Both the position numbers and the translations under genes were made by a program. Of a stretch of 64,000 bases of DNA, positions 2,354 to 47,307 are shown piece after piece. Under the pieces are notes generated by a model. That model saw only the letters and a program-made list of their open reading frames with translations, made no database searches and was not told the origin of the DNA. Source of the DNA: a virus. Its lineage: Duplodnaviria > Heunggongvirae > Uroviricota > Caudoviricetes. Numbering within the stretch: position 1 is the first letter of the stretch; the number at the start of each line of letters is the position of its first letter. The stretch is taken from IMG/VR virus record IMGVR_UViG_3300044951_001136; one strand, written 5' to 3'.

Positions 2354-2382
2354 TTGATTTATCTATTGGTCTATGTTAAAAT
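2354..2382 (+). promoter_or_regulatory. sigma70-type promoter TTGATT-N17-TGtTAAAAT inside inverted repeat CTATG...CATAG; -10 ends 6 nt before ATG 2389 (leaderless)
   Basis: Read directly: ttgatt(2354-2359), 17-nt spacer, TGt+taaaat(2377-2382). Confidence 0.45.
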
Positions 2383-2388
2383 ACATAG

Positions 2389-2898
2389 ATGAGAACCGAC
2401 ATATACGATCAAATAATCCTCACAGAAAATGACCTGTGTGATTTGTATATGCGTGATTCTACCCGCACTATAAAAGATTGTTTGGTAGATGAAAAGATAA
2501 CTCTGGGTACCATATTTCTTTCAAATGAAAACTTACCCGTTCTAATAGAGTATGTTAAATCTAATTTATCAGTAAAAGAATTTGATAGTCAAAATCAATC
2601 ACAATGGCAAATGCCCAAAGAATATTATGAAATGGATATTGCTAAATGGGTATTAGCTCAATGCAAAACCGAAGAAGAACTGCAACGAGCAGGTGATGAA
2701 CTATTAAAATTCCATGATAGGAATATGTTTTCATTACTACAATACTTAAAATATCTTGTTGATACTATGCGTAGTAATAACATAGTTTGGGGAGTGGGCA
2801 GAGGTAGTAGTGTGGCTAGTTTTGTGTTGTTTTTGATAGGGATTCACAGAATTAACAGTCTTTTTTACCAATTATCAATTGATGAATTTCTAAGGTGA
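2389..2898 (+). CDS. DnaE-like fragment (end of PHP/start of palm) terminating just before the catalytic Asp pair
   Basis: VWGVGRGSSVASFVLFLIGI...SLFYQLSIDEFLR matches DnaE [20 protein letters not shown]...LLFERFLNPER; stop falls where DnaE PDFDVDF would follow. Confidence 0.55.
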   Translation: MRTDIYDQIILTENDLCDLYMRDSTRTIKDCLVDEKITLGTIFLSNENLPVLIEYVKSNLSVKEFDSQNQSQWQMPKEYYEMDIAKWVLAQCKTEEELQRAGDELLKFHDRNMFSLLQYLKYLVDTMRSNNIVWGVGRGSSVASFVLFLIGIHRINSLFYQLSIDEFLR

Positions 2899-2971
2899 GT
2901 AATTGGAATACTGAGTAAAAATTAAGGCATACTAGCAGAAGATTAAATATTACTAACTAAAAGGAGATAAA

Positions 2972-3343
2972 ATGGCCACATACAGATCCGCAATGGGTAA
3001 AACCGTTGACATGTCAGCTATTGTAGCAAAAAATGAAAAAGTCAGAGCCGTGGGGAATGTCAAAAATCTTAACGCACGAGGTGACACCATTGATTCAATG
3101 GGTAGAATAATTCAACCCGCAACTGCTAAAGTAAACAATGCTTATGCTAAAACAGTGGGAAATCGTTCAGCAAACGCAAGCAAGCCACAAAGTAGAATAC
3201 AACCGGATGTTCCCACACCAGCAAAAATAGCCGTTGCTGAACTCCACCCAGAAGAATTTGAGTTAGATGAATCAATTGAAGATGATTTGGCGATTGAAAA
3301 AATCAAAGAAGAAGAAATCAAGAAAGCAACAAAGAAGAAATAA
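2972..3343 (+). CDS. hypothetical protein (123 aa, acidic/Lys-rich C-terminus)
   Basis: ORF with AAGGAG SD 8 nt upstream. Confidence 0.5.
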   Translation: MATYRSAMGKTVDMSAIVAKNEKVRAVGNVKNLNARGDTIDSMGRIIQPATAKVNNAYAKTVGNRSANASKPQSRIQPDVPTPAKIAVAELHPEEFELDESIEDDLAIEKIKEEEIKKATKKK

Positions 3344-3344
3344 C

Positions 3345-3734
3345 ATGACACACACCGAACCAAAAAAATTAGCATTTGCTCCACATAAATTCAATAAAAG
3401 CCAGTTCAACCCAATTGGCGCACATATTATCGTATGTGATATGAGTTTTGACCAACGCATTACACATGGCGGTATTCTATTGCCCAATGATGATATGAAA
3501 AGTGCAGGTATCAGGCCTCGCTGGGGAAAGATATATGCTGTGGGTTCAGAAAACAAAGATACTGACATTGTTGAAGGTAAATGGGTTTGTGTCAGTCATG
3601 GACGCTGGACTCGTGGAATTGAGATAGAAGATGAAACGGGTAAGAAAACATTGCGTAGAGTTGACGCTGATGATATACTAATGATGTCAGATGAAGAAGT
3701 ATCGGATTCAACATTAAGCGAAATGGTGTACTAA
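3345..3734 (+). CDS. GroES / T4 gp31-like co-chaperonin
   Basis: GAHIIVCDMSF...THGGILLPND...GKIYAVGSEN resembles GroES IRPLHDRVIV...AGGIVLP...GEVVAVGPG; start moved to ATG 3345 immediately after upstream TAA. Confidence 0.6.
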   Translation: MTHTEPKKLAFAPHKFNKSQFNPIGAHIIVCDMSFDQRITHGGILLPNDDMKSAGIRPRWGKIYAVGSENKDTDIVEGKWVCVSHGRWTRGIEIEDETGKKTLRRVDADDILMMSDEEVSDSTLSEMVY

Positions 3735-6184: not shown

Positions 6185-6192
6185 GATAAATA
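6185..6192 (+). promoter_or_regulatory. GATAAATA motif (T4-late-promoter-like), 5 nt upstream of ATG 6198
   Basis: Motif read in sequence; recurs at 11841, 17015, 18374, 24761, 32916, 53029. Confidence 0.4.
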
Positions 6193-6197
6193 TATTA

Positions 6198-6809
6198 ATG
6201 AAGCACGAAGCCGCAGACAATTTTTTTAATGGTGTTGATTATGTCAGCATCATAGACACCGTAAAAGGTATATTTACTAGTGATGGTTCAATGAATACCT
6301 TATTGGACTTTGAACGAGTACTAGACGAATCTGACCTATACGCCTACCGTAACTGGGAACTAGGTGAATTAGTTCAAGGTCCTGACATAAAACGCTATAC
6401 AGTTAGTTGCATATTCATGTGGCCATACAAACTAATGCCCAATCCAAAAGGTGCCAGACGATTAGTAGCAATTGGATGTAAAGTTAAATTTGCTAAAAGC
6501 AAAATTGAAGTTCCAGTAGAAGTCAAAGATTACGAAGATTATGTTGCAGGGACAAGATATCCAAAGATGGCACCTAAACAAGTTTGGTTTGTTTTCATAG
6601 AGATTCCCAAAGACTTGCTGGACGATATTAAAGAAGGTTCTATTGACTTGGCAGGACAAACAATTGATCTGGAAGAACTAGATGATTCATACGATGAAGA
6701 TTTAGATAAAGACAATGGTGAGGGCGAGGAAGAAAATCCGCAACAACCAGTTGATATGGGAATGGGCGGCATGCCACCTCCGGCAGCTCCTGGTGCCCCT
6801 CCAATGTAA
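6198..6809 (+). CDS. hypothetical protein with very acidic C-terminal half and Gly/Met/Pro-rich tail (scaffold-like?)
   Basis: ORF; composition only. Confidence 0.5.
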   Translation: MKHEAADNFFNGVDYVSIIDTVKGIFTSDGSMNTLLDFERVLDESDLYAYRNWELGELVQGPDIKRYTVSCIFMWPYKLMPNPKGARRLVAIGCKVKFAKSKIEVPVEVKDYEDYVAGTRYPKMAPKQVWFVFIEIPKDLLDDIKEGSIDLAGQTIDLEELDDSYDEDLDKDNGEGEEENPQQPVDMGMGGMPPPAAPGAPPM

Positions 6810-7994: not shown

Positions 7995-8023
7995 TTGACA
8001 ATAGCAGATTATTTTGCTACAAT
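7995..8023 (+). promoter_or_regulatory. sigma70 consensus promoter TTGACA-N17-TACAAT, -10 ends 6 nt before ATG 8030
   Basis: ttgaca 7995-8000, 17-nt spacer, tacaat 8018-8023. Confidence 0.6.
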
Positions 8024-8029
8024 AATAAG

Positions 8030-8845
8030 ATGGATTATTATGAAATTTTAGGTGTTACTAAAACCGCCTCACAAGAGGATATCAAAGGGGCCTGGCGAAG
8101 ATTGGCTAGTCAGCATCATCCCGATAAGGGAGGGGATAAAGTCAAATTTCAGGAAACACAAGCTGCGTATGAAACATTAAGTGATGCAAATAAACGCCAG
8201 CAATATGATAATCCCATGCCACAAGGATTTCCGCAGCAAGGTGGAATACCCCCAGGGTTTGAACATATATTTGGTCAAATGTTTGGTCAAAATAATCCTT
8301 TTGACATATTCAGTCAACAACGTAGACAACAACAACCTCAACAACAATTATTTAGAACAACAATAAATATATCATTAGAACAAGCATATAACGGCGGTGA
8401 ACAAATATTAAAACTACAAACACCCACGAATGTACATGCCATAACCATTCAGATTCCTAAAGGGATTCAAAATGATAATCAAATGCGTATAGATAAAGTC
8501 ATAGATGGTGCTAGTTTAATAGTAGATTTTCGGGTTGAACCCCATCTCAAATATGATAGACAAGGTAATGATTTAATTTGCAACCATCCAATTTCCGTGT
8601 TAGATTTGATTATTGGCACAAGTTTTGAATTTGTTACTCTATCAGGAAAAACGCTGGATGTAACAATTAAACCTAAAACTCAACCCTATATTCAATTAAA
8701 ATTAGCGGGACAAGGCATGCCTATACTAAATGCTACTAGCTACGGTGACCAAATTATATTGTTAAAAGCATTCATCCCTGATATAATAGGAGAACAAGTT
8801 ATCAATAGCATTACGGCTTATAAACAACAAAGGAATCAAGCATGA
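8030..8845 (+). CDS. DnaJ-family co-chaperone (J domain + divergent C-terminus)
   Basis: MDYYEILGV...HHPDKGGD J-domain with HPD motif. Confidence 0.8.
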   Translation: MDYYEILGVTKTASQEDIKGAWRRLASQHHPDKGGDKVKFQETQAAYETLSDANKRQQYDNPMPQGFPQQGGIPPGFEHIFGQMFGQNNPFDIFSQQRRQQQPQQQLFRTTINISLEQAYNGGEQILKLQTPTNVHAITIQIPKGIQNDNQMRIDKVIDGASLIVDFRVEPHLKYDRQGNDLICNHPISVLDLIIGTSFEFVTLSGKTLDVTIKPKTQPYIQLKLAGQGMPILNATSYGDQIILLKAFIPDIIGEQVINSITAYKQQRNQA

Positions 8846-11103
8846 ACCATTCACCCGAAATTGATAGCATTATTGAACAAGCGATTCATCATGCTAAAGA
8901 AAGAAAACATCAATATGTAACCGTAGAACATTTACTTCTTGGTTTGATAAATCACAGTGCATTCAAAAAATGCTTGCATAGTTTTGGTGCAGATATTGAA
9001 ACAATGGATCAAGAGATTAAGGCATACTTAGACAGTTTACATGCCATTGTAAGCAAAGAGGATGAAGTAGTACCTCGTAAAACAAATAGTTTAGAACGAG
9101 TTATGAATCGTTCTGTAACACAAGTGTTATTCACCGGTCGTAGGCAAGTAACAACTATTGACTTGTATCTTAGCATTGCGGCAGAAGGGAATAGTCATGC
9201 TCATTATTTCTTGTTGAAATACGGAATCAACAAAAATGAATTTGTAGCACATTGGCAGAAAAATTATAAGCACAACGAAGTGGGTAATCTCACCGAGAAT
9301 CAAGCCGACGAAATTCTAGAAGAATATACCATCAACTTAACACAATTAGCGGCACAAGGTAAACTTGAACCAATGATTGGTCGCGGCAAAGAACTTGACG
9401 ATATCATTAATGTACTTGCTAAACGATTCAAGAGTAATGTATTGATGGTAGGTGACCCTGGGGTTGGTAAAACAGCAATCGCCGAAGGTCTAGCACAGAT
9501 GATGATCAACAAAGAAGTACCTGAATTCTTGCATGATCATCAAATATATAGCTTGGAGATTGGCTCATTGCTTGCAGGAAGTAAATATCGCGGGGACTTT
9601 GAAGAAAAAGTCAAAGCAGTACTGGATGCGTTAAACACAAAGAAAAAGACTATCCTTTTCATTGACGAGGCACATACTATGCAGGGTTCAGGGGGTTCAT
9701 CTACTGGTTCAGTGGACTTCAGTAACATGATTAAACCCGCAATTACTAAAGGTACTCTTAAAGTTATTGCTAGCACAACTTGGGAAGAATACTACGAAAG
9801 TTTTGAAAAGGACCGTGCATTGATGCGTAGATTCTATCGTGTGTCAGTTGATGAACCTAATCACGACACAACTATTCGTATATTGAATGGATTAAGTGCT
9901 AGACTTAATGATTTTCACAATGTTGAAATTACAGATGAGGCAATCAAAGCAGCAGTTGAAAGTGCTGATCGGTATATTCATGACCGAAAGAACCCAGACA
10001 AATCTATTGATTTACTTGATGCTGCTTGCGCTAAACAACGAGTAGCAGAGAACAAAGGGGCAATCATTACCAAAGACCTTGTATTTGATCAAGTTGAACG
10101 ATTCACCGGAGTCCCTGCTGACAAGATGAAGGGTGACAACTTTGATTTGATTCATAATTTAGAATCAAATATCAAGGACAAACTATATGGTCAAGATGAA
10201 ACTGTACAAAAAGTACTTGAACGAATTTATGTTAACTTTGCTGGTATTGGTAATGATAGTAAACCAACAGGTAGTTTCTTATTCTTAGGCCCTACTGGAA
10301 CTGGTAAAACAGAATTTGCCAAACTACTTAGCAAGAACTTGGATATGCCGCTACTTAAGTATGACATGAGTGAGTATTCAGAGAAGCATAGTGTTTCAAG
10401 TTTGATTGGACCTCCTCCGGGCTATGTTGGATTCGGTGATAGTCAAGTGTCGGGTGGTAGATTGATTAATGACTTGAGCAAGAACCCACATAGTATTATG
10501 CTATTTGATGAGGTTGAAAAAGCACATCCAGAAATCTTTAATATCTTTCTACAGATGTTAGATGAAGGGCATCTTACCGGTAGTAATGGCAAGCAAGTTA
10601 ACTGTAAAAACAGTATTATCATTATGACTAGTAACTTGGGTTCTAGTGATAGCGAACGCAACAACATTGGATTTGGCACACAAGAAAAGACCGGTGAAGA
10701 TGACAAAGCATTGAAAGAATTCTTCAAGCCTGAGTTCCGTAATCGTGTTGATTTGATTTGCAAGTTTAACAAGTTGGATACACTTGCTATTAAGAAGATT
10801 GTTATCAAGTTTACCGATGACTTGAAAAAGAGTTTGTTAGACAAACATGAAATTGTAATGAATCTAAGTGAGCCAGTGGTAGAATACTTAGCAGAGCAAG
10901 GATATGATAAGAAAATGGGCGCACGACCATTAAGTCGTAAGATTGATGAATTGATTCGGGTACCTCTAAGTAAGAAAGTCTTGTTTGAGCGCATTAAATC
11001 TGCAACAATCAATGTTGTAATGTCAGCCGGAGCAATTGATTTTGTAGTAACACACAAACTAACAGCAATGGTTGATGACAATGGATTAATTATTGTTAAC
11101 TAA
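8842..11103 (+). CDS. ClpA/Hsp100-family AAA+ unfoldase (two AAA modules, Clp N-domain)
   Basis: Clp_N-like VTVEHLLLGLI; D1 Walker A GDPGVGKTA, Walker B ILFIDEAH; D2 Walker A GPTGTGKTE, Walker B IMLFDEVEKAH; 753 aa like ClpA. Confidence 0.85.
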   Translation: MNHSPEIDSIIEQAIHHAKERKHQYVTVEHLLLGLINHSAFKKCLHSFGADIETMDQEIKAYLDSLHAIVSKEDEVVPRKTNSLERVMNRSVTQVLFTGRRQVTTIDLYLSIAAEGNSHAHYFLLKYGINKNEFVAHWQKNYKHNEVGNLTENQADEILEEYTINLTQLAAQGKLEPMIGRGKELDDIINVLAKRFKSNVLMVGDPGVGKTAIAEGLAQMMINKEVPEFLHDHQIYSLEIGSLLAGSKYRGDFEEKVKAVLDALNTKKKTILFIDEAHTMQGSGGSSTGSVDFSNMIKPAITKGTLKVIASTTWEEYYESFEKDRALMRRFYRVSVDEPNHDTTIRILNGLSARLNDFHNVEITDEAIKAAVESADRYIHDRKNPDKSIDLLDAACAKQRVAENKGAIITKDLVFDQVERFTGVPADKMKGDNFDLIHNLESNIKDKLYGQDETVQKVLERIYVNFAGIGNDSKPTGSFLFLGPTGTGKTEFAKLLSKNLDMPLLKYDMSEYSEKHSVSSLIGPPPGYVGFGDSQVSGGRLINDLSKNPHSIMLFDEVEKAHPEIFNIFLQMLDEGHLTGSNGKQVNCKNSIIIMTSNLGSSDSERNNIGFGTQEKTGEDDKALKEFFKPEFRNRVDLICKFNKLDTLAIKKIVIKFTDDLKKSLLDKHEIVMNLSEPVVEYLAEQGYDKKMGARPLSRKIDELIRVPLSKKVLFERIKSATINVVMSAGAIDFVVTHKLTAMVDDNGLIIVN

Positions 11104-11840: not shown

Positions 11841-11857
11841 GATAAATACTCTATAAT
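11841..11857 (+). promoter_or_regulatory. GATAAATACTCTATAAT motif (T4-late-like); the 17-mer TGATAAATACTCTATAA is identical to the one at 18373
   Basis: Read in sequence upstream of small ORF 11870. Confidence 0.4.
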
Positions 11858-11869
11858 GGGGTATTTTTC

Positions 11870-12037
11870 ATGGCAAAAATCGTAACAGAATCGGTTGTAA
11901 TAACCTTTAGTAAAATTGTTAAGGATGGCGAATCAGATAATGCTGATATCGTTGGGGCTGACGTTCAGCAAGCATTGGAGCAAGTTGCCCAGGAACTTGT
12001 AGGCAGAGGCGTAGTAGTTGAAGTGGTAAAAGCATAA
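11870..12037 (+). CDS. small hypothetical protein (55 aa), TAATG-coupled to next gene
   Basis: ORF below the track cutoff; ends TAA overlapping ATG 12037. Confidence 0.3.
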   Translation: MAKIVTESVVITFSKIVKDGESDNADIVGADVQQALEQVAQELVGRGVVVEVVKA

Positions 12038-16990: not shown

Positions 16991-17014
16991 AGGCCCCGAA
17001 AGGGGCTTTTTTTT
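16991..17014 (+). terminator. intrinsic terminator
   Basis: aggcccc-gaaa-ggggct followed by tttttttt. Confidence 0.7.
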
Positions 17015-17022
17015 GATAAATA
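17015..17022 (+). promoter_or_regulatory. GATAAATA late-like motif 4 nt upstream of ATG 17027
   Basis: ttttgataaataactaATG. Confidence 0.4.
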
Positions 17023-17026
17023 ACTA

Positions 17027-18352
17027 ATGAACCTAAAAGAATTAAACAGTTTTAAACTAAGTGATGCAGTTACATTCCACGACAAACTTAATCCAAAGTT
17101 ATGGAACGGTACTAAACTACGGTCAGAAGTTAGAGAACAACTTATAAAGATAGCACAAGACTTTTTATCGGAATTAGGGGTACATGATTTAGATGTAAAA
17201 GACATCACCATATCAGGCAGTAATGCTGCATTTAGTTACACAAAGCACAGTGATTTAGATTTGCATATATTAGTAGACATGGGCAATTTGCCTATAGATG
17301 AAGTATATAAAGAGTTATTCAATGCAAAGAAAACAATTTACAATGATTCCCATGATATAACAATTCATAAAATTCCAGTAGAATTGTATGTACAAGACAG
17401 TAGAGAACCTGTAGTAAGTTTAGGTGAATATAGTATAATTAATGACCAGTGGATAAGAATACCCACTAAGCGTAGAAGTGATTTTGACCAAACTGCCACT
17501 AAAAGTAAGTATGAAAAGTTATTAGCTGTAATGGAGATTGCCCTCAAATCAAGAAAGTACAGCAGAGTAAAACATATATTAGATACAATCAAAAGATATA
17601 GACAAGCAGGGTTAGATAAAGGGGGTGAATTTTCACCTGAGAATTTAGCATTTAAGATGTTGCGTAGCCAGGGATATATTACAAAGTTGTATGATTTAAG
17701 AAACAAGTTACATAGTGAGAAGTTATCGTTTGAAACTATGTATCGTAATGTCACAGACGAAGATTATGATCCAAATGGTCCTCCTCCTGGACCAGAGTTT
17801 AAACCAACGATGCCCGCAGGTACTGTTAAAGTAGATGTTAGTGATGTATATGATTGGTATAAGTTAGGTCAACATATTAGCAATCTTAAAGGATTAGGAA
17901 AGCATGATTTTGGTAAAGGACCACCTAGTACCATACTGGCGTTTGGAAGTGAAGATGAAGAACATAAGTATATTGATGCACTAAAAAAGACTGGATTAAC
18001 AACAACAGATATTGATCCAGTTGATCCAAAACAACCTAAAGGTATGCCTAGACAGAAAGTTGATCCTACATATAATGTCGGTGAAAATTACACTATGCAA
18101 TTTGCCAGTGAAAAGACTTCAGCAATAAATCCATACGGTGGGCGTAAAGACAATCAATATCGTGGTGGAATAAGTGAAGCAAGTGGTTACATTCCTTCCG
18201 AGTCAGAAAAAAATGATCCACGATTTAAGACCGCACTAACCGTGGATGTGAATCCGTATAGCATTCAGGACAACTCTACGAGACTAGGGTTAGGTAAAAT
18301 AAAAAGAAGCGGTGTACCAAAAACTGCCCCTACAAACGGAAAAATCTCTTAA
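17027..18352 (+). CDS. Pol-beta-superfamily nucleotidyltransferase-domain protein (441 aa)
   Basis: ITISGSNAAFSYTKHSDLDLHILVD fits the hG[GS]x9-13DhDh minimal NTase motif. Confidence 0.55.
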   Translation: MNLKELNSFKLSDAVTFHDKLNPKLWNGTKLRSEVREQLIKIAQDFLSELGVHDLDVKDITISGSNAAFSYTKHSDLDLHILVDMGNLPIDEVYKELFNAKKTIYNDSHDITIHKIPVELYVQDSREPVVSLGEYSIINDQWIRIPTKRRSDFDQTATKSKYEKLLAVMEIALKSRKYSRVKHILDTIKRYRQAGLDKGGEFSPENLAFKMLRSQGYITKLYDLRNKLHSEKLSFETMYRNVTDEDYDPNGPPPGPEFKPTMPAGTVKVDVSDVYDWYKLGQHISNLKGLGKHDFGKGPPSTILAFGSEDEEHKYIDALKKTGLTTTDIDPVDPKQPKGMPRQKVDPTYNVGENYTMQFASEKTSAINPYGGRKDNQYRGGISEASGYIPSESEKNDPRFKTALTVDVNPYSIQDNSTRLGLGKIKRSGVPKTAPTNGKIS

Positions 18353-18373: not shown

Positions 18374-18390
18374 GATAAATACTCTATAAC
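18374..18390 (+). promoter_or_regulatory. GATAAATACTCTATAAC late-like motif upstream of 18405
   Basis: Read in sequence. Confidence 0.4.
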
Positions 18391-18404
18391 TTTGGGAAAC
18401 CAGC

Positions 18405-24183: not shown

Positions 24184-24223
24184 GGTTTAATATTAACATT
24201 AATAGTTCACACTAAATATCAGT

Positions 24224-24676
24224 ATGAACATCACAAAATTAGGTACATTTATCGGTGATTGGAGTAATATCAATGATACTTTACTTCAACAACTAAGCAA
24301 TCTAATCAAACTTAGAAATTGCAATATTAATTTAGATAGACAAAAGCCAAATCAAGTCTCTACTTTTATTAAAGATAATTTAGAACATTATAATTTGGAT
24401 CAACCTTTCACTGTTAAAAGAATCTGTATTCATTTAACAGATTGGGTACCAGGGCATTTTTATTGCTTTGATGATGTTAATCATACCAACTGGAAAGCAG
24501 GGGAAGTGTATGGAATTGATTGGCATAATACTTCTTATGCTAGTGCAAACGCAGGAAATAGTGACAGAATTATATTACAACTTACTGGAATATCAACAGA
24601 AGAATCTAATGAATTCTTGGCCAGATTAAAACGATTTGATAAATATACACTAGAACTTAAAGAAAGTTCTTGGTAA
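24224..24676 (+). CDS. hypothetical protein (150 aa)
   Basis: ORF. Confidence 0.5.
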   Translation: MNITKLGTFIGDWSNINDTLLQQLSNLIKLRNCNINLDRQKPNQVSTFIKDNLEHYNLDQPFTVKRICIHLTDWVPGHFYCFDDVNHTNWKAGEVYGIDWHNTSYASANAGNSDRIILQLTGISTEESNEFLARLKRFDKYTLELKESSW

Positions 24677-24760
24677 GAACACCCTTAGGGCCGTGTGGCC
24701 GGCTGCTGGCCAACGAATAGGAATCGCTACCCATTTAGTTCGTTAAAGTGAGCACCTTTT

Positions 24761-24768
24761 GATAAATA
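24761..24768 (+). promoter_or_regulatory. GATAAATA late-like motif 4 nt upstream of ATG 24773
   Basis: ttttgataaatacataATG. Confidence 0.4.
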
Positions 24769-24772
24769 CATA

Positions 24773-25357
24773 ATGCTCACTGAACACATTATTATTGAAT
24801 CCGCTACAAATGAATTGGCAAAACGCTTGCCGTCATTGCAAAAACATGACTACACAACGATTGACAAATTAATGCGTCAAGTTGCTAGTAGACATAGTAT
24901 TACTAGCAAAGCACTACATGACCTATTTGTGCGGAAATTCAAACGATCACCGGATAACTGGGTTAAGGGCAAGCTAGATGAAGAAAATGACGAACCAGAC
25001 TTTTTAGCAGATAACCCAATAATGCAGAAATTCATTCAATTTGCAGCACAAAAACTTAATCTACAATCAGTACCCGAAATTGAATTCAGCTACGATACTG
25101 AAGAAGCACAAGAAGGTCATCATACTGGTCGCCATAGTACAAATGATAATAATGTTTGGGTATATGTTGCTAATCGTAATATGGTTGATATTATGCGTAC
25201 GGTCCTGCATGAACTTACTCATGTCCGTCAAGGTGAATTGGATATGATTAAACCAGGTGATAGTTACCCAGGTAGTCCAATTGAAATGCTAGCTGATATG
25301 AGTGCCGGAAAATATATGAAAGTATTTGGCAAAGATCACCCGGAAATCTTTCAATAA
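24773..25357 (+). CDS. putative zinc metallopeptidase-like protein
   Basis: HELTHVRQGE HExxH motif near C-terminus. Confidence 0.45.
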   Translation: MLTEHIIIESATNELAKRLPSLQKHDYTTIDKLMRQVASRHSITSKALHDLFVRKFKRSPDNWVKGKLDEENDEPDFLADNPIMQKFIQFAAQKLNLQSVPEIEFSYDTEEAQEGHHTGRHSTNDNNVWVYVANRNMVDIMRTVLHELTHVRQGELDMIKPGDSYPGSPIEMLADMSAGKYMKVFGKDHPEIFQ

Positions 25358-25377
25358 AATCATTTCTATGCTATAAT
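25349..25377 (+). promoter_or_regulatory. extended -10 promoter (TTTCAA-N17-TGcTATAAT); -10 ends 6 nt before ATG 25384 (leaderless); TCTATGCTATAATGCATA shared with 44221
   Basis: Read in sequence. Confidence 0.45.
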
Positions 25378-25383
25378 GCATAG

Positions 25384-25992
25384 ATGCTTAAACTACTCTT
25401 TCCGTTGCCAAAAGAAGTTGTTGTCGCACTAAGCGGCGGGGTTGACTCTGTTGCTATTACAGATTTCCTTTCCCGTAAACATAAAGTAACTTGCGCTTTC
25501 TTCCATCATGGAACAGAGAATAGTGAACGGGCATTTGAATTTGTTGCTAAATTCTGCACTGAACGAAATCTTCCACTTATGGTTGGCCTGATTAAGAATG
25601 ATAAACCTAAAGTACTTAGTACAGAAGAACACTGGCGCAACGAACGCTATGACTTCTTGGACAGCTTTGGTGATTCATTGGGTCCAATTATTACCGGTCA
25701 TCACTTAGATGACTGCGTAGAAACATATCTTTGGTCATCAATGCATGGCCAGGCAAAAGTTATCCCAGCAAAAAGAAACAATGTAGTACGCCCATTTCTA
25801 ACAACAACTAAAACCGAATTCACAAATTGGTGTAAACAGAAATCTATTGATTGGTGTCACGATAATAGTAATGATGACACCAAATATATGCGTAACTATG
25901 TCAGACAACATATTATACCACACGCATTCCATATTAACCCCGGGCTAAGAACGGTGGTAAAAAAGATTGTAGAAAATCAGCAAAATGTTTGA
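25384..25992 (+). CDS. PP-loop ATP pyrophosphatase, TilS-like N-terminal domain (possibly a QueC-type role)
   Basis: VALSGGVDS PP-loop; ITGHHLDDCVETYLW and VVRPFL resemble TilS GHHxDDQAET / iRPLL; lacks the QueC Cys cluster; 202 aa. Confidence 0.65.
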   Translation: MLKLLFPLPKEVVVALSGGVDSVAITDFLSRKHKVTCAFFHHGTENSERAFEFVAKFCTERNLPLMVGLIKNDKPKVLSTEEHWRNERYDFLDSFGDSLGPIITGHHLDDCVETYLWSSMHGQAKVIPAKRNNVVRPFLTTTKTEFTNWCKQKSIDWCHDNSNDDTKYMRNYVRQHIIPHAFHINPGLRTVVKKIVENQQNV

Positions 25993-33845: not shown

Positions 33846-34068
33846 ACCAATGGACTATACCGGTGTTCATCATCAAATTTACACAGCTGGAATAGAATTG
33901 CATAGCAACTACAACGATGGTTTCAATCAGTTTGAAATCAAAAAAGACTTACATCGTATCAAGTGGTTGCTTGATGAGATTATGGCTGATTCACCTACAT
34001 TCGCCGGCGAAGAAGAATTTCTTGATGAACATTCTAAAATAAAGATGTGGAGAACATTAAAAAAATGA
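33832..34068 (+). CDS. hypothetical protein (78 aa)
   Basis: Start moved to ATG 33832 after GAGGAAAA SD. Confidence 0.35.
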   Translation: MGFRKPMDYTGVHHQIYTAGIELHSNYNDGFNQFEIKKDLHRIKWLLDEIMADSPTFAGEEEFLDEHSKIKMWRTLKK

Positions 34069-34526
34069 TATTCAACAGAATCAAAGAACTAAAACAACAA
34101 GGGCTTAAGATAGGTATCGTATTCTCCCAATTTGATATTCTACATGCCGGGCATATTGCAATGCTTAGTGAAGCTAAAAATCATTGCGACTATCTTATTG
34201 CTGGTTTGCAGAATAACGCACAATGGGATAGAGCGGAGAAGAATGCTCCTATTCAAAGTATTGTTGAGAGGCAGATTAGTTTAAGTGCTGTCCGTTTTGT
34301 AGATGAAATTGTTGTTTACAATACTGAGAAGGACTTGGAAGATATTCTACTCATACTACCTATTGATGTTCGTATCTTGGGTGTAGAATACAAAGATAAG
34401 GATTTTACGGGTAGCGATATTTGTCAAACTCGCAGAATTGAAATAGTATTTAATGAGCGTGATCACAGTTTCAGTAGTTCAAGTCTACGTAAACGAGTTG
34501 CGGACGCACATCAAAAAGATAAGTAA
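34047..34526 (+). CDS. cytidylyltransferase-fold nucleotidyltransferase, TagD / RfaE-domain-II-like
   Basis: GIVFSQFDILHAGHIAML (HxGH), DYLIAGL, C-terminal DHSFSSSSLRKRV (ISxTxIR-like) parallel B. subtilis TagD; alternative start ATG 34065. Confidence 0.7.
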   Translation: MENIKKMIFNRIKELKQQGLKIGIVFSQFDILHAGHIAMLSEAKNHCDYLIAGLQNNAQWDRAEKNAPIQSIVERQISLSAVRFVDEIVVYNTEKDLEDILLILPIDVRILGVEYKDKDFTGSDICQTRRIEIVFNERDHSFSSSSLRKRVADAHQKDK

Positions 34527-34527
34527 A

Positions 34528-35031
34528 ATGACACAACTACCAGTAACATATAAGTGGACTTCCACAAAAGAGTATCACGATGCGTTCCCCTGTGCTTATA
34601 GACAGTACAAAGCCGACAGCCATTGCCAGTTTTTACATGGTTATAGCTTCTCAATGAAGTTCTATTTTGGAACAAACGACTTAGATGCGCGCCGATGGGC
34701 TGCGGATTATGGCGGCTTGAAAGAACTAAAGCAAACATTAGAGAGTCAATTTGACCATACAACATTAGTGGCTGAATCAGATCCACATCTAGACTGGTAT
34801 GTGCAGGCGGAACATCGTGGCATTATGAAATTAACTATTCTCCCCAACTTAGGATGTGAAAGTCTTGCAGATATGCTATACAAGTATGTTAACGGGGTTT
34901 ACATTCCTGATATGTGGGGTGAAAGTGAAGCAAAGCGTTTGTGGTGCTATCGGGTTGAAGTACGTGAAACACAGGCAAATATGGCTTTTAGAGAGGGGCA
35001 TCGTGAATGGAATGAGGATTTGTTTGAATGA
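34528..35031 (+). CDS. queD: 6-carboxy-5,6,7,8-tetrahydropterin synthase (QueD / PTPS family)
   Basis: SHCQFLHGYSFSM (Cx3HGx) and EHRG T-fold motifs; start moved to ATG 34528 after upstream TAA. Confidence 0.75.
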   Translation: MTQLPVTYKWTSTKEYHDAFPCAYRQYKADSHCQFLHGYSFSMKFYFGTNDLDARRWAADYGGLKELKQTLESQFDHTTLVAESDPHLDWYVQAEHRGIMKLTILPNLGCESLADMLYKYVNGVYIPDMWGESEAKRLWCYRVEVRETQANMAFREGHREWNEDLFE

Positions 35032-35246
35032 GTTCTGATTCAGACTTTAAAATGTTTAAATGGGTACCTGATGGTACTTATGATTACAGTGACTTTCTTA
35101 CACGATATGTTATAGTCAATGGTAATCCAACTGTTGTTATCAATCGTGCGTGGGTAAATAGTGGAGGACCAGAAGGAGTTTCAGCCGAATTGAAACAAGC
35201 ATGGGGTTCATTTCCTGATATGCCTCTAAAGCCATTAAAGAAATAA
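35028..35246 (+). CDS. hypothetical protein (72 aa)
   Basis: ATGA-coupled ORF. Confidence 0.4.
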   Translation: MSSDSDFKMFKWVPDGTYDYSDFLTRYVIVNGNPTVVINRAWVNSGGPEGVSAELKQAWGSFPDMPLKPLKK

Positions 35247-35401
35247 TGAAGATATTTTGGAGAATATGGGCAAAATCCCTAGGTGAGAAAGCGGGCACAA
35301 CCGATACAGAATCTGACCGTATTGCGTGTATTAGAACTTGTATTGTGTTATGCTATGTCATTACAAACTTGTTTATCATAGCAGGTGCAATTAGTTAGAT
35401 T
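35246..35401 (+). CDS. small hydrophobic protein (51 aa)
   Basis: TAATG-coupled ORF below track cutoff; C-terminal TM helix. Confidence 0.25.
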
Positions 35402-35413
35402 AAGGATCAAAAA

Positions 35414-36262
35414 ATGAGCAAATTAAAAATTAGTGAACTATTTTATAGTATTCAAGGAGAAGGCCGATATATCGGAGTACCAAGTATTTTCCTACGAACA
35501 TTTGGTTGCAACTTCAAATGTGCAGGGTTTGGTATGCCAAGGGGCGAAATAAGTAGTGAAGTAGAAGATATCGCAGCCCGTGTGCATTACTACACGGCTT
35601 ACACCCAACTACCATTAGTTAGTACAGGTTGCGATAGTTATGCAAGTTGGGATCCTCGTTTCAAAGATTTCAGTCCAATACGTACTACTGATAGTATTGT
35701 TGAAAGTATTATGACAATGCTTCCGCACAAGCGTTGGATGGAAGAACATCTTGTTATTACAGGGGGTGAACCTTTGCTAGGTTGGCAACGCAGTTATATT
35801 GATTTACTTTCACATGAAAACATGACGGGTTTACAAGAACTAACATTTGAAACAAATGGCACTCAACCGTTGCAACATCAATTGAAAACCTACTTGCATC
35901 AATGGGCCATCAATCGTTCTAGAGGTGCAATAACATTTAGTGTTAGTCCTAAACTTGGTATCAGTGGCGAGAAGTGGGAAGAAGCAATATGTCCTGAAAT
36001 TATTGATGAATATAGTCAAGTAGGTCATACATATCTGAAGTTTGTTGTGGCCAATAGACAAGATGTAGAAGAAGCACAAGAAGCAGTTAATCAATATCGT
36101 ACTCACGGATTTAGGGGTAATGCTTACTTGATGCCATGTGGCGGAGTTGAAAGTGTATATAACATGAATGCCAAAACAGTTGCACTTGAAGCAATGCGGT
36201 TAGGCTGGCGTTATAGTGATAGACTTCAGGTGCCACTCTTTAAAAACGCATGGAATACCTAA
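35414..36262 (+). CDS. queE: 7-carboxy-7-deazaguanine synthase (QueE, radical SAM) with atypical Cys motif
   Basis: ISELFYSIQGEGRYIGVPSIFLRTFGCNFKC parallels E. coli QueE MFQTLQGEG...GCPVGCAWC; third Cys is replaced (CAGF). Confidence 0.75.
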   Translation: MSKLKISELFYSIQGEGRYIGVPSIFLRTFGCNFKCAGFGMPRGEISSEVEDIAARVHYYTAYTQLPLVSTGCDSYASWDPRFKDFSPIRTTDSIVESIMTMLPHKRWMEEHLVITGGEPLLGWQRSYIDLLSHENMTGLQELTFETNGTQPLQHQLKTYLHQWAINRSRGAITFSVSPKLGISGEKWEEAICPEIIDEYSQVGHTYLKFVVANRQDVEEAQEAVNQYRTHGFRGNAYLMPCGGVESVYNMNAKTVALEAMRLGWRYSDRLQVPLFKNAWNT

Positions 36263-42654: not shown

Positions 42655-42691
42655 GTTGTTGCCCGTAAATAGTTGACTTTATTGTGCAATT

Positions 42692-43759
42692 ATGCGACAA
42701 TACATATCTTATTTATCGCTTTGGGCTTTTATCTTGACAAATAATAATATCAAACGGATTGGATTTGCTTGCAAATTTTCAGAACTAAACAAGAAGGGTG
42801 AGATTACCAGCATACCTGAATTGAATACAGGCGGTACTACTCTGGCTTGGGCCGCAAGGCAAAAGCGTAGTGTAGCAGAAGAAAAGGTAATTGAAGTTGC
42901 CAAACGCAACATTCTACATACTCATAATCTAGTCAAAAAGGTAGCAACACTACAACCCGAACTACGCATGGTTCGTCTGACTAGTGACATGCTGAGTTTT
43001 TACACCCATGATGACTGGAAAGACTTCTGGCAAGATAGTGATATTCAAAACAAACTAGCACACTGGATGGCACCAATTGGTGAAACAGCTAGAGCCAATG
43101 ATGTTCGTCTTAGTATGCACCCCGGACAATTTACAGTTTTAGCGAGTGACCGTGAAGAAGTAGTAAATAAGAGTATAGAAGAATTTGAATATCATTGTGA
43201 CATGGTTCGTTGGATGGGCTATGGCAAATCATTTCAAGACTTCAAAGTTAATGTACACATTTCTGGTAGAAAAGGGCCTCAGGGTATCAGAGATGTTTAT
43301 GGTCGTTTGTCCCCAGAAGCCCGAAACACACTTACACTAGAAAATGAGGAATACACACATGGACTATCTGACTGCTTATCGTTATCTGACCTCGTGCCTA
43401 CGGTACTCGATATCCATCACAACTGGATTCGTGAAGGTGAATATATTCAATCTACTGATACGCTTGTACAACGGGTTATTGATAGTTGGCGTGGTGTTCG
43501 CCCTACTATGCATTACAGTGTTAGCCGCGAAAATGTACTCACAGATCATTCCACTACACAATTACCCGATCATGGTGCGTTGATTAATGCAGGGTATAAT
43601 AAACAGAAACTTCGGGCACATAGCGACCACTATTGGAATACTGCGGTTAACGATTGGGCATTGACATTTCTTGACAATTTTGATATAATGACCGAGAGTA
43701 AAGGAAAAAACCTAGCTAGTTTTAAATTATTTGAAAGATATAAAAATGGGATTATTTGA
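42692..43759 (+). CDS. uvdE: UV-damage endonuclease
   Basis: RLSMHPGQFTVLAS, VNVHISGRKG, LTLENEEYTH, VLDIHHNW align with B. subtilis UvsE (RTSFHPNQFTLFTS, INIHIGGAYG, MTLENDDKTY, VFDFHHF). Confidence 0.8.
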   Translation: MRQYISYLSLWAFILTNNNIKRIGFACKFSELNKKGEITSIPELNTGGTTLAWAARQKRSVAEEKVIEVAKRNILHTHNLVKKVATLQPELRMVRLTSDMLSFYTHDDWKDFWQDSDIQNKLAHWMAPIGETARANDVRLSMHPGQFTVLASDREEVVNKSIEEFEYHCDMVRWMGYGKSFQDFKVNVHISGRKGPQGIRDVYGRLSPEARNTLTLENEEYTHGLSDCLSLSDLVPTVLDIHHNWIREGEYIQSTDTLVQRVIDSWRGVRPTMHYSVSRENVLTDHSTTQLPDHGALINAGYNKQKLRAHSDHYWNTAVNDWALTFLDNFDIMTESKGKNLASFKLFERYKNGII

Positions 43760-44201: not shown

Positions 44202-44204
44202 AGG

Positions 44205-44233: not shown

Positions 44234-44291
44234 GCATATTGAATATGAATAGCAGTGTTTATACTTTATTTTTAAACTGTAGGAAAATTAT

Positions 44292-46268
44292 ATGAGCCAT
44301 TTGTTTCCAAACACAAACACAAATACAAACATAATCAAATTGTCAACTGCAACAAAGAAGATTGATTTAGATTTTATGCGGCCGCTGCAAAAGAAATATT
44401 TGCACGACAATCTTTTTACTTCTATTGCCGATTCTGAACTAGCTAACGACAATCGTATTACAATCATACCTGCAGGGACTAACGCAGGCAAATCTACTGT
44501 GATTACTAAAATCACAATCCCATCTGTGATCCAGCGTGATTCGTCAGTGAAAACTATCGTGTTCACATCACCTGATAGTGGGTGTGTATCTGGTCCTTAC
44601 CATAAGTTTCACGCAGAGTGGAATGAAAGGCGTATTCAGTGTGATGATGGTAAAATCAAAACGATTCGTGCCCGCTGCAAGGATGAAATTAAAAAGTCAT
44701 GGGAACTACATGAACTAACACCGGAAAATGTAGTTGATGTTTGGTTTGTGTCTACTCAGTGGCTCGGCCGTATCTGGGGAAGCTATCGTGATCCGGCTAT
44801 TCCTAAAAATATAGGAGTCCCTCAATATATTTTTGTTGATGAAATTCACTTTGGTATGGGTACAATTGATGCTACTACAATCTTTTATGATCAAGGTCGT
44901 AATAACAAAAACTTTGACCCCAAGTGGTTGCCTACTATAAATGGTATGGCAGTTGCCGGATCGCGTGTCTTAGGTTATACCGGTACTGCTACTGTAAGTC
45001 AGCAAGGCGGAACTACATTGGGTGCTAAGGTGTTTAAATCGTTGTCCCCTATGCCTGAGTATAAAAATACTAGTGTGTTTGCAGAAATGACACCTATTAA
45101 ACCATATGTCAATTCATCTACTTACCGGAGTGAATTGTTGAATACATATGAATTGTCAAAGTTGACTTATGAAGTGACTGTTGAAAAGTGTGATAAATTT
45201 TTCAATGACATTGATGTAGAAACTTGGAAAAAGGCAATGGAAATTGACATTGTTCAAATTATTCCCGGTGCGTTTTTTAAATTTGGGCGTTATGATGCCG
45301 GTAAGTCTATTCCATTGTATAAAACTCGTGGTCGGAAGAATAATTTCATAAATTTTGCTAAATCATTGCAAGCAGATATTGGTATTGTTACATCAGACGA
45401 AAAAGTGTATTTTAAAACAAGCCATAATCAATATAATAACTGCAATGATGCGTATGACATTATTGATTTGGCTAATAACAAATCTAATATTATAGATCCG
45501 TTTTTGCTAGGTGTGGTTATGCAAGGTAATATGGGTTGGGATATACCTAGACTGAAACAAATTTCATTCTTGGGTTATCCTAGCGCAAAGAATGTTTGCT
45601 TGATGCAATTGCAAACAATGGCAAGAGCAAAGCGTTTATTGTGCGGAGTATATGATCACACCGACAAAGCACGACAAATTGCTGAATTGGAGGTGTCACT
45701 TGAACAAAAAATTCTGTTGGCAAAGTATGTAGTGTTTGTTAATACTGTTAAAATTGTCATTCCCAATGATTCATCATTGCTAGATGTTGCGTTTGATCAG
45801 TTCCGGCAAAACATGCACACCCCTAATGAAGGGTTAGACTTGTATCTGAACATCATTCGCACTCATGTGCCCGTTGAAAAGAATAATGTAACTAAAGTGA
45901 TTAAGCCTCACTTTGATCAGGGTTACGATCCGGGTTCACAAAATCAAATGAACAAGAAAGACTATTGCCAACATTGCACCGACTTGGGATTAGTTGATGC
46001 TAAGGGAGTTACCTTCTGTAAACGTACTGGGAGCGTACAAGCAGATGATCTGGCGCTGCATAAATTGAAGCGTAAATTGACTGATGATGAATTCAATATG
46101 CATTGGAAAAGACAGTTGAAATGTGATCATCTTAACGGTGACCGAACTGACAATAGACCAGAAAATTTATATACCCGGTGTGCAAGCAGCGATGCGTTGA
46201 AAACCTCAATCAATGAGGATTACCTAAATAAATATGATCAAAATGGTAAGCGGGTAAACGGTGATTAA
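44292..46268 (+). CDS. DEAH-box helicase fused to C-terminal HNH endonuclease
   Basis: IPAGTNAGKST Walker A; IFVDEIHFG DEIH box; C-term CQHC...CDHLNGDRTDNRPENL HNH motif. Confidence 0.7.
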   Translation: MSHLFPNTNTNTNIIKLSTATKKIDLDFMRPLQKKYLHDNLFTSIADSELANDNRITIIPAGTNAGKSTVITKITIPSVIQRDSSVKTIVFTSPDSGCVSGPYHKFHAEWNERRIQCDDGKIKTIRARCKDEIKKSWELHELTPENVVDVWFVSTQWLGRIWGSYRDPAIPKNIGVPQYIFVDEIHFGMGTIDATTIFYDQGRNNKNFDPKWLPTINGMAVAGSRVLGYTGTATVSQQGGTTLGAKVFKSLSPMPEYKNTSVFAEMTPIKPYVNSSTYRSELLNTYELSKLTYEVTVEKCDKFFNDIDVETWKKAMEIDIVQIIPGAFFKFGRYDAGKSIPLYKTRGRKNNFINFAKSLQADIGIVTSDEKVYFKTSHNQYNNCNDAYDIIDLANNKSNIIDPFLLGVVMQGNMGWDIPRLKQISFLGYPSAKNVCLMQLQTMARAKRLLCGVYDHTDKARQIAELEVSLEQKILLAKYVVFVNTVKIVIPNDSSLLDVAFDQFRQNMHTPNEGLDLYLNIIRTHVPVEKNNVTKVIKPHFDQGYDPGSQNQMNKKDYCQHCTDLGLVDAKGVTFCKRTGSVQADDLALHKLKRKLTDDEFNMHWKRQLKCDHLNGDRTDNRPENLYTRCASSDALKTSINEDYLNKYDQNGKRVNGD

Positions 46269-46274
46269 TATAGT

Positions 46275-46303
46275 TTGACAATATCTACATAGTAATATAT
46301 AAT
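46275..46303 (+). promoter_or_regulatory. perfect sigma70 consensus promoter TTGACA-N17-TATAAT; -10 ends 8 nt before ATG 46312
   Basis: Read in sequence. Confidence 0.65.
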
Positions 46304-46311
46304 ACACACAT

Positions 46312-47307
46312 ATGAAATACGCCCTGATCGATACCGCAAATACATTTTTTCGTGCCCGGCACATTGCATCACGCAGTAGTACAGTTGAGGAGAAAATAGG
46401 AATGGCCCTACATCTTACCTTGGCTAGCACAAATCAAATTGTGCGTAAGTTTGGGGTGGATCATGTGGTCTTCTGCTTGGAGGGGAAAAGCTGGCGCAAA
46501 AACTTCTATGCTCCGTACAAGAAGAACCGCGTAGTAGATACCTTGTCTCAAACAGTAGCTGAGGCCGATGAGAACACCCTGTTTTGGACCACGTATGAGA
46601 CATTTTGCACATATCTTAAAGACCGCACAAACTGTAGTGTCCTGCGTGATCCAAAAGCTGAGGCTGATGACTTGATTGCACGATTCATTCACTTGCATCC
46701 CGATGATGAACATTTTATTATCAGTAGCGATACTGATTATTTGCAACTTATCACTCCCAAGGTAAAACAGTATAACGGTGTCGCTGGGCATCTAATCACA
46801 CTTGAAGGATATTTTGATGACAAGGGTAAACCTGTAAAGGACAAAGAAAAGAATATTAAACTACTAGAGGATCCACAATATCTGCTGTTCAAGAAGACCA
46901 TGAGGGGTGATGCCACTGACAATGTGTTTTCGGCTTATCCGGGTGTAAGAGAAAAAGGTACACAAAAGAAAGCTGGATTGATTGAGGCATACGCTGATAG
47001 AACTAAGCAAGGCTATGCGTGGAACAATCTGATGTTGCAACATTGGCAGGACCACAATGGTGTGGAACATCGTGTGCGTGATGATTATGAACGCAATCGG
47101 GTACTCATAGACTTGACAGCCCAGCCCGATGATGTTAAACTGTCAGTAGACACACATATTCGTGAGGGTGTTCGTACAACTACTATTCCGCAAGTTGGTA
47201 TTCACTTTCTGAAGTTTTGTGGTAAATACGATTTGGCTAAAATTAGTACAAATGCTGAGACTTATGCAAAATGGCTTAACAGTCCTTATGAGGGTATTTT
47301 GAAATGA
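46312..47307 (+). CDS. 5'-3' exonuclease / flap endonuclease (T4 RNase H-like)
   Basis: MKYALIDTANTFFRA N-term; AEADDLIA; conserved acidic clusters typical of the FEN family. Confidence 0.85.
   Translation: MKYALIDTANTFFRARHIASRSSTVEEKIGMALHLTLASTNQIVRKFGVDHVVFCLEGKSWRKNFYAPYKKNRVVDTLSQTVAEADENTLFWTTYETFCTYLKDRTNCSVLRDPKAEADDLIARFIHLHPDDEHFIISSDTDYLQLITPKVKQYNGVAGHLITLEGYFDDKGKPVKDKEKNIKLLEDPQYLLFKKTMRGDATDNVFSAYPGVREKGTQKKAGLIEAYADRTKQGYAWNNLMLQHWQDHNGVEHRVRDDYERNRVLIDLTAQPDDVKLSVDTHIREGVRTTTIPQVGIHFLKFCGKYDLAKISTNAETYAKWLNSPYEGILK

Follow-up and report, generated by a model that had tools for sequence, protein, structure and literature searches.

What marks the beginning of translation at a gene whose promoter reaches so close to the ATG that a Shine-Dalgarno (SD) sequence has no place between the two? 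The question is raised by a 64,000-nucleotide (nt) stretch of Caudoviricetes DNA, IMG/VR record IMGVR_UViG_3300044951_001136 (hereafter, the window), in which an earlier note made from the letters alone had described promoter-like elements directly before several start codons and proposed a class of leaderless phage mRNAs. Our analysis assigns 13 of the 88 window genes (~15%) to this leaderless type, the rest being SD-led or translationally coupled. Two kinds of promoter motif stand next to the ATGs of these genes, a host sigma70 type at four and a T4-late type at nine, and we consider it likely that all 13 are transcribed as leaderless or near-leaderless mRNAs from these two promoter classes.

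Promoter motifs adjoining start codons

The four sigma70-like sites that the earlier note had singled out, at 2389, 8030, 25384 and 46312, each read letter for letter as given there:

2354..2391, + strand: sigma70-type promoter, TTGATT-N17-TGtTAAAAT-acatag-ATG 2389, before the gene for a 169-amino-acid (aa) Pol III alpha-like protein
7995..8032, + strand: sigma70-type promoter, TTGACA-N17-(TGc)TACAAT-aataag-ATG 8030, before dnaJ
25349..25386, + strand: sigma70-type promoter, TTTCAA-N17-TGcTATAAT-gcatag-ATG 25384, before a PP-loop ATPase gene
46275..46314, + strand: sigma70-type promoter, TTGACA-N17-TATAAT-acacacat-ATG 46312, before a FEN / 5'-3' exonuclease gene

The spacer from the -10 hexamer to the ATG is 6 nt at three of the four sites and 8 nt at FEN, and the nucleotides that fill it (acatag, aataag, gcatag, acacacat) leave no room for an SD. 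At the PP-loop gene, the -35 element TTTCAA overlaps the 3' end of the preceding gene (stop codon 25355-25357). Statistics drawn from the window by itself are weak for this class. Under loose criteria, a sigma70-type site adjoins 4 of 81 ATG gene starts versus 27 of 2,502 other ATGs (p=0.015); with a score of at least 10, the comparison is 4 gene-start ATGs versus 3 others. A generic sigma70 scan of the window returned 74 promoter-like strings versus 72.8 in shuffled sequence, which is no excess. The conclusion for the sigma70 class therefore rests on the relatives considered below.

The three late-like motifs of the earlier note also stand exactly as described, with GATAAATA lying 5, 4 and 4 nt before ATGs 6198, 17027 and 24773. 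The late class is larger than that note had it, since a systematic scan of the window added six further sites (1507, 24224, 50982, 53044 and 58669 on the + strand, 52365 on the - strand). The nine sites, with the open reading frames (ORFs) or proteins that they precede, are:

1494..1509, + strand: AATAAATA, overlapping the preceding stop codon, 5 nt before ATG 1507 of an 85-aa ORF; the weakest member
6185..6200, + strand: GATAAATA, 5 nt before ATG 6198 of a virion structural protein gene (phrog_12928)
16993..17029, + strand: terminator (GCCCCGAAAGGGGC plus T8) followed by GATAAATA, 4 nt before ATG 17027 of a 441-aa protein
24211..24226, + strand: ACTAAATA, 5 nt before ATG 24224 of a 150-aa ORF
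24747..24781, + strand: GATAAATA at 24761-24768, 4 nt before ATG 24773, enclosed by an 8-bp inverted repeat, AGTGAGCA / TGCTCACT
50970..50984, + strand: GATAAATA, within the 3' end of the upstream ORF and 4 nt before ATG 50982 of a 65-aa ORF, with the stop/start overlap TAATG
52363..52377, - strand: ACTAAATA, 4 nt before ATG 52365 of a 164-aa ORF
53031..53046, + strand: TATAAATA, a perfect T4 consensus, 5 nt before ATG 53044 of an 82-aa ORF
58657..58671, + strand: ACTAAATA, 4 nt before ATG 58669 of a 562-aa protein

The T4-type late 8-mer occurs in the window as GATAAATA, ACTAAATA, CATAAATA, TATAAATA and AATAAATA; there is no conserved -35 element, and the flanks are fully diverged in relatives. 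Here the window statistics are strong. TAAATA stands 4-5 nt before 9 of 81 ATG gene starts versus 5 of 2,502 other ATGs (Fisher p=3e-11). Moreover, 17 of the 38 MTAAATA motifs lie within 70 nt upstream of a same-strand gene start, where 4.9% are expected (p=5e-13), and the distances of these 17 to the start fall at 4-5 nt (nine motifs), 19-23 nt (three) and 55-68 nt (five). On these figures chance is excluded for the late class. As to function, the 6198 product matches a virion structural protein family and the 58669 product matches such proteins weakly, and the other seven late-type products have no known function.

Both motif types also occur ahead of SD-bearing leaders of 15-60 nt, in the window as well as in relatives, which argues that they are promoters and not translation signals. 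The window provides several such cases for comparison:

11841..11872, + strand: GATAAATA with a 21-nt leader before ATG 11870
18374-18407: late motif with a 23-nt leader, resembling the 11841 case
197-226: late motif with a 19-nt leader, resembling the 11841 case
53681..53744, + strand: canonical leadered cassette, TTGACA-N17-TATAAT, a 32-nt leader with an SD, then ATG 53742

With the leadered late-motif cases, the same motif is found at two discrete classes of distance.

Some details of these sites deserve mention in their own right. The 16993-17029 unit is very compact, a strong bidirectional intrinsic terminator being followed directly by GATAAATA, 4 nt and the ATG, a layout that recurs in several relatives. 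A conserved CCGTTGACA at 52378-52386 (- strand) lies just upstream of, or overlapping, the 52365 late motif and is still there in relatives, at variable distance. Among the leadered genes, 11870 and 18405 share a 16-nt GATAAATACTCTATAA upstream (11841-11856 and 18374-18389), in which the late motif is joined by a TATAA(T/C) box 3 nt downstream. The 53681-53744 cassette recurs as an exact 64-nt direct repeat at 54068-54131, so that one copy stands upstream of each of the adjacent genes 53742 and 54129; it looks like a duplicated promoter-leader cassette.

The start codons themselves are secure. Upstream of each candidate ATG, the frame runs into a stop codon before any other possible start. DnaJ begins MDYYEILGV, with the J domain running from residue 2, and the Pfam models begin at residue 12 of the PP-loop protein and residue 3 of the 5'-3' exonuclease (FEN). 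N-termini are conserved among homologues, and independent JGI gene calls give the same starts. Given these domain boundaries, conserved N-termini and gene calls, the annotated starts are correct, and the possibility raised in the earlier note that the true starts are downstream in-frame ATGs is excluded. Across the leaderless-type families, all 164 start codons are ATG and none is GTG or TTG; compared with the SD-led families (24 of 261 non-ATG), the difference is not significant at the family level, because the 24 non-ATG starts come from only 3 of 21 families.

An SD classifier finds no SD at 12 of the 13 window sites. Among homologue upstreams, an SD-like match accompanies the promoter once (1 of 22 at DnaJ), and the other SD-flagged upstreams, one each in the 1507 and 53044 families, are without the late motif. 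The contention that these genes leave no room for an SD and are mixed with canonical SD genes is thus strongly supported by conservation, by statistics and by verification of the start codons.

Three other starts were considered as sites and set aside. GTG 62806 was rejected as a leaderless start, Hsp20 beginning instead at ATG 62860 behind the SD TAGGAG. The frame of ATG 74 is open to the left edge of the window, so this ATG is probably internal to a gene running off the edge. ATG 42692 was dropped, its status as a start being uncertain: at the start of the UvdE-like endonuclease gene (region 42655-42760), homology begins at about residue 22 of the ATG 42692 ORF, either TTG 42734 or ATG 42692 may be the start, and neither has a clear SD or promoter. 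The Hsp20 gene carries ACTAAATA 57 nt upstream of its ATG (region 62795-62862), and the leader would contain the hairpin GTGAGTGCCGATAGTCGGGCTCAC; it could be a regulatory or thermosensing 5' untranslated region, though one that has no Rfam match.

Conservation of the arrangement in related phages

We compared the window with 191 related loci (2.39 Mb) collected around the polymerase, DnaJ and FEN genes. For each window gene, the homologous start was located and the 60 nt upstream were classified, so that the counts below are of distinct homologue upstreams. Three architectures, namely a sigma70-type promoter next to the ATG, a late-type promoter next to the ATG and an SD-led start, are each conserved across relatives. 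SD-led genes keep their SD (at 26039, for instance, in 38 of 38 upstreams), and the families of the leaderless type are as follows:

2389 family, sigma70 type: promoter next to the ATG kept in 17/17; 6-nt spacer in 14/17
DnaJ family, sigma70 type: kept in 22/22, the most diverged at 49% aa identity; 11 spacers of 6 nt and 11 of 5 nt
PP-loop family, sigma70 type: kept in 34/34; TG in 34/34; 6-nt spacer in 32/34
FEN family, sigma70 type: kept in 38/45; 6-nt spacer in 38/40
6198 family, late type: GATAAATA invariant in 19/19; spacer of 4 nt (10) or 5 nt (9); flanks diverged
24224 family, late type: kept in 10/10, every spacer 5 nt
50982 family, late type: kept in 27/27
52365 family, late type: kept in 19/19
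24773 family, late type: kept in 17/24
17027 family, late type: motif in 7/12; the layout of terminator plus motif recurs
1507 family, late type: motif in 9/17; the remaining upstreams abut the preceding stop codon
53044 family, late type: two homologue upstreams only, with the motif in one

The 58669 protein has no homologue among the 191 loci.

Sigma70-type sites persist in homologues only ~50% identical in protein sequence, while the DNA between the conserved elements has changed. In these families, consensus positions of the -35 and -10 elements are 80-100% conserved, and the distance between the two elements is 17 nt in 17/17 (2389), 18/22 (DnaJ), 33/34 (PP-loop) and 40/40 (FEN) upstreams. 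Between the -10 element and the ATG, each sigma70 family shows 14-16 different sequences. What is conserved is therefore the length of the spacer (6 nt, or 4-5 nt in the late class) and not its sequence. Even in FEN homologues extended by one or two N-terminal codons, the distance from TATAAT to the ATG is exactly 6 nt. In the 50982 family, where the motif overlaps coding sequence, the codon before ATA varies (CAG, CTG, GTG, TTG, GCG, ATG) with G always in third position; because this G of the motif is kept through non-synonymous changes in the overlapping codon, the constraint at 50982 acts at the DNA level.

The same preference emerges when distances are counted across all 2.39 Mb. From strong sigma70 -10 elements to the next ORF-opening ATG, there is a peak at 6 nt (57 cases, with 10 more at 5 nt), about 20 scattered cases at 7-18 nt (ten of them at 9 nt) and a broad leadered peak from ~19 nt. 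Distances from MTAAATA to the ATG peak at 4-5 nt (108) and at 15-25 nt, with almost none at 7-14 nt. These counts include homologous copies and are therefore non-independent, but the gap is robust to this.

Two observations on spacers stand beside these results. An in-frame stop codon (TAG, TAA or TGA) directly precedes the ATG in 32 of 34 PP-loop upstreams (25381-25383 in the window), in ~40% of those of the 2389 and DnaJ families and in none of those of FEN. The FEN spacer (46304-46311) consists of an (AC)n tract, with 8 nt here and 10 nt in L112, the closest relative; relative to the 6-nt norm of the family, both are (AC)n expansions. Such a tract may be prone to slippage, which would tune the length of the leader.

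Which genes carry the arrangement differs from one lineage of relatives to another. Orthologues of 6198 in phages PA5oct, RaK2 and Phosso have leaders with an SD, and it follows that no cultured model carries the arrangement at this gene. The PA5oct orthologue has been detected in virions, and GATAAATA precedes its gene, 24 nt from the ATG. Conversely, the clamp-loader gene is translationally coupled in the window and has TTGACA-N17-TAAACT-6 nt-ATG in more distant relatives.

Proposed leaderless transcripts and the alternatives

We infer that the motifs fire as promoters and that the first transcribed base would be the A of the ATG or lie no more than ~2 nt from it, giving an mRNA with neither a 5' leader nor an SD. 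Such an mRNA would enter the leaderless pathway, in which the ribosome together with initiator tRNA recognizes the 5'-terminal AUG. One class of promoters would be read with host sigma70-type factors (TTGACA-N17-(TG)TATAAT, 6 nt, ATG) at four genes with early or middle-type functions. The other class, of T4-late type ((G/A/C/T)(A/C)TAAATA, 4-5 nt, ATG), would presumably be read with a phage gp55-like sigma at nine genes, which include those of virion proteins. Behind a sigma70 -10 element, a 6-nt spacer would by the usual rule make the A of the ATG the +1 position. The T4 late consensus spans -13 to -6 (PMC1524935), and a 5-nt late spacer therefore also places +1 on that A. At the 17027 site, the terminator directly upstream supports the promoter reading.

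Transcription of the sigma70-type sites by host RNA polymerase has indirect support from the cultured relative PA5oct, which depends on that enzyme, is sensitive to rifampicin and carries TTGAC/TATAATA promoters (PMC7318152). Among the phages of the supergroup, Atu_ph07 has an annotated gp55-like sigma, gp694 (PMC6102473), with 3069 homologues in the protein collection searched; these homologues are related to T4 gp55 (hhalign probability 96.3%). A search of IMG/VR with gp694 returned only gp694 itself. Of the translation machinery, IF3 and bS21 occur in the Atu_ph07 group (PMC11242549). In another freshwater jumbo-phage lineage (L211-L215; L211 10001), the gp55-like gene itself has TTGACT-N17-TAAAAT-7 nt-ATG. 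In most other lineages (~60), that gene has a similar promoter with a 15-25-nt leader carrying GGAG.

Several points weigh against leaderless transcription as the explanation. The commonest late spacing is 4 nt, where the strict T4 rule puts +1 on the T of the ATG, and a one-base shift or a 0-1-nt leader is needed. The 8-nt FEN spacer implies a short leader, and the FEN transcript in the window is probably near-leaderless, with a leader of 1-2 nt. Most sites have no upstream terminator, and their ORFs must therefore also sit on read-through transcripts. A search of public assemblies for transcript contigs starting at the ATG, made for DnaJ and the 65-aa protein, found DNA assemblies only. Structure at the 5' end of the coding sequence, with the first 30-50 nt folded, is not significantly lower than in other genes (p=0.055, 0.20 and 0.25). 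No gp55 homologue was found in the window or the related loci, and among the best 80 of more than 586 loci in an alignment-based gp55 scan, none is on a contig linked to the window. A search for the host by PolB found no relative among 185,579 species genomes.

Of the competing explanations, one accepts the promoters as real and holds that the adjacent gene is mostly translated from read-through RNA, by coupling or by A/U-rich, S1-dependent initiation; the promoters would then serve genes further downstream, and their proximity to the ATG would reflect compaction. The layout of the genome gives this some footing: nine of the 13 sites have an intergenic gap of -1 to 43 nt and the remaining four one of 68-178 nt, most sites lack an upstream terminator, 18 other window genes overlap or abut, the ATG of 50982 shares letters with the preceding stop codon (TAATG), and in the 1507 family roughly half of the homologues abut the stop without any motif. 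Compaction alone leaves unexplained why the spacer stays at exactly 6, or 4-5, nt through sequence turnover and N-terminal indels, and neither does read-through account for the near-absence of distances of 7-14 nt. The hairpins predicted at 24773, 2389 and 25384 (see below) would impede rather than aid initiation on read-through RNA. We regard this explanation as unlikely. Less probable still is that the A/T-rich elements act in the polycistronic mRNA, as translational enhancers or standby sites for initiation that is non-SD but leadered. TATAAT and TAAATA are A/U-rich, as S1-binding enhancers are, and 16 further window genes have neither an obvious SD nor these motifs. A -35 element conserved exactly 17 nt upstream and a TG present in every PP-loop upstream are, however, features of sigma70 recognition of DNA and not of mRNA. 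The late motif is identical to the late promoter consensus of T4 and Aeh1 (PMC1524935), it stands at 19-23 nt and 55-68 nt upstream of real SDs as well, and at 50982 its G is kept against coding constraint.

That the arrangement arises by chance or from annotation, with true starts downstream or with A/T-rich sequence yielding promoter-like strings, has a negligible probability and is refuted for practical purposes. The lack of excess in the generic sigma70 scan and the 27 non-start ATGs that score under loose criteria would suit it, but the enrichment statistics are strong, conservation reaches 34 of 34 diverged upstreams, and the starts are fixed by domain boundaries, conserved N-termini and the JGI calls. 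Leaderless or near-leaderless transcription thus remains the reading that we prefer. The suggestion in the earlier note that such initiation forms a temporal or stress-dependent translational programme is not supported, because the architecture occurs under both sigma70 and late promoters and on unrelated functions: the genes concerned span a Pol III alpha-like fragment, DnaJ, a PP-loop ATPase, FEN, virion proteins and ORFs with no assigned function.

Inverted repeats at some sites raise the further idea that leaderless initiation is a switch set by which promoter, sigma70- or gp55-type, made the RNA. An SD-less ATG would be silent on read-through RNA and active as a 5' end, T4-type late promoters would directly specify mRNAs beginning with AUG, and at some genes a hairpin with its 5' arm upstream of the promoter would hide the ATG. 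We hold this only tentatively and think it rather doubtful. At 24773, a predicted 8-bp helix (24747-24754 / 24774-24781) encloses GATAAATA and would pair the UG of the AUG on read-through RNA only. The 5' arm does not vary between the window and 12 relatives; pairing with the wobble base of codon 2 is preserved in 11 of these 13 sequences, and none shows a compensatory change. In read-through RNA, the ATG is predicted to pair strongly with upstream sequence at six of the 13 sites, and in this the class does not differ from other genes. With no compensatory change at 24773 and a class that is not more occluded than the rest, hairpin gating is put forward as a hypothesis.

Two further inverted repeats flank -10 elements, TCTATGT/ACATAGA at 2389 (2370-2376 / 2383-2389) and TCTATGC/GCATAGA at 25384 (25365-25371 / 25378-25384). 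Both follow, at two unrelated genes, the 7-bp pattern TCTATGY / RCATAGA, whose last base is the A of the ATG. The repeat may serve as an operator or form a hairpin in read-through transcripts. Repeats flanking the -10 element are enriched in the 2389 and PP-loop families (none of 300 shuffles gave as high a value), with distant members differing in their arms, and no enrichment was found in the DnaJ or FEN families.

Phage clade, known systems and significance

The window sits within the 234,546-bp contig Ga0485158_0000001 of JGI metagenome 3300044984; its G+C content is 35-42%, and nearly all of its genes are on the + strand. A DNA-level search of phage records with the window gave no match and no near-identical record. 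The family-B DNA polymerase is 42-48% identical to the polymerases of the jumbo phages Phosso, Atu_ph07, Vibrio 2.275.O, XaC1 and RaK2, the gene order PhoH, two virion proteins, DnaJ is common to the window and Pseudomonas phage PA5oct, and a related polymerase is found on at least 456 IMG/VR contigs, the longest of 524 kb. On these sequence grounds (polymerase identity, PA5oct-like gene order and the IMG/VR relatives), we place the window in an uncultured, abundant freshwater jumbo-phage clade of the RaK2/PA5oct/Atu_ph07 branch of the T4 superfamily.

The genes annotated in the window encode a clamp loader, PolB, the Pol III alpha-like fragment, FEN, a ligase, 7-deazaguanine synthesis proteins and virion proteins. 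Searches of the window found no tRNA genes and no Rfam matches. Chaperone and protease genes are unusually concentrated (3267-3734, 8030-11103 and 61557-63679): a GroES-like protein, DnaJ, a 753-aa ClpB/ClpA-like ATPase, ClpX-like and ClpS-like proteins, and Hsp20. A 7-deazaguanine (queuosine-type) cluster at 32989-36262 encodes GTP cyclohydrolase, QueD-like and QueE-like proteins, with the PP-loop ATPase apart from it at 25384-25992; cluster and ATPase together suggest a modified base in the phage DNA.

Leaderless mRNAs as such are already known. The classical example in Escherichia coli is lambda cI, whose transcript from the sigma70 promoter PRM starts with the A of the AUG; elsewhere lambda, like the phage described here, relies on SD-led genes. 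However, cI is a single regulatory gene of a temperate phage, whereas the group of 13 genes here is conserved, lies in 64 kb of a lytic-type jumbo phage and includes structural genes. Thermus phage P23-45 also has leaderless mRNAs. In the lytic Thermus phages phiYS40 and Lalka27a, promoters likewise abut start codons in more than one temporal class and transcripts open with the initiator codon; most transcripts are leaderless, and 5' ends have been mapped (bioRxiv 10.64898/2026.04.20.719267). There, leaderless genes are the majority and the host phylum is rich in them; here, the predicted ones make up ~15% and are mixed with genes that have strong AGGAG SDs, and their promoters are of sigma70 consensus and T4-late type, unlike those of the Thermus phages. 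For whole bacterial and archaeal genomes, the model of GeneMarkS-2 (Lomsadze et al. 2018, cited in PMC9004378) uses the promoter as the start signal of leaderless genes, with a -10-like box at a fixed short distance before the start in place of a ribosome-binding site. The window has the same geometry in a minority class of phage genes, with two promoter types.

What has not been seen in T4 is the specification of leaderless mRNAs by late promoters. T4 late promoters (TATAAATA, dependent on gp55, gp33 and gp45) share with those described here the 8-mer and the lack of a conserved -35 element. Aeh1 also has the CTAAATA variant (PMC1524935), gp55-like sigmas are present in the supergroup, and at 6198, and perhaps at 58669, the motif stands before a virion gene. 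The 26 copies of TATAAATA in 135 kb of T4, however, lie 13-32 nt from the next ORF start and none closer, whereas 9 of 38 motifs here lie at 4-5 nt; the first position here favours G or A, not T. The 24773 site recalls T4 genes e, soc, 49 and I-TevI, whose translation is gated by promoter of origin (PMC3014915): the late promoter lies within an inverted repeat with its 3' arm over the start codon, and only RNA from the late promoter would free the AUG. The late transcript of those T4 genes has a leader and an SD, whereas that of 24773 would be leaderless, from a site where the hairpin is a prediction that lacks compensatory changes. Of other phages, phiKZ has no leaderless transcripts, and AR9 leaders measure 26-491 nt. 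Full-text literature searches of incomplete coverage did not turn up leaderless transcripts made from T4-type late promoters in any phage of the T4 superfamily, nor any described for the RaK2/PA5oct/Atu_ph07 group.

If the proposed transcripts are made, gp55-type late transcription can yield leaderless mRNAs, and a large freshwater jumbo-phage clade (hundreds of IMG/VR contigs of up to 524 kb) would run two modes of initiation side by side. The sigma70-type cassettes, being short and near consensus, are directly testable in E. coli. Gene callers based on ribosome-binding sites would mis-score these starts in phage metagenomes. For the phage, an SD-less ATG that can be translated only as a 5' end would tie translation to the adjacent promoter, and leaderless mRNAs would need no anti-SD pairing and offer no SD to a nuclease such as RegB, which would bear on host range and counter-defence.

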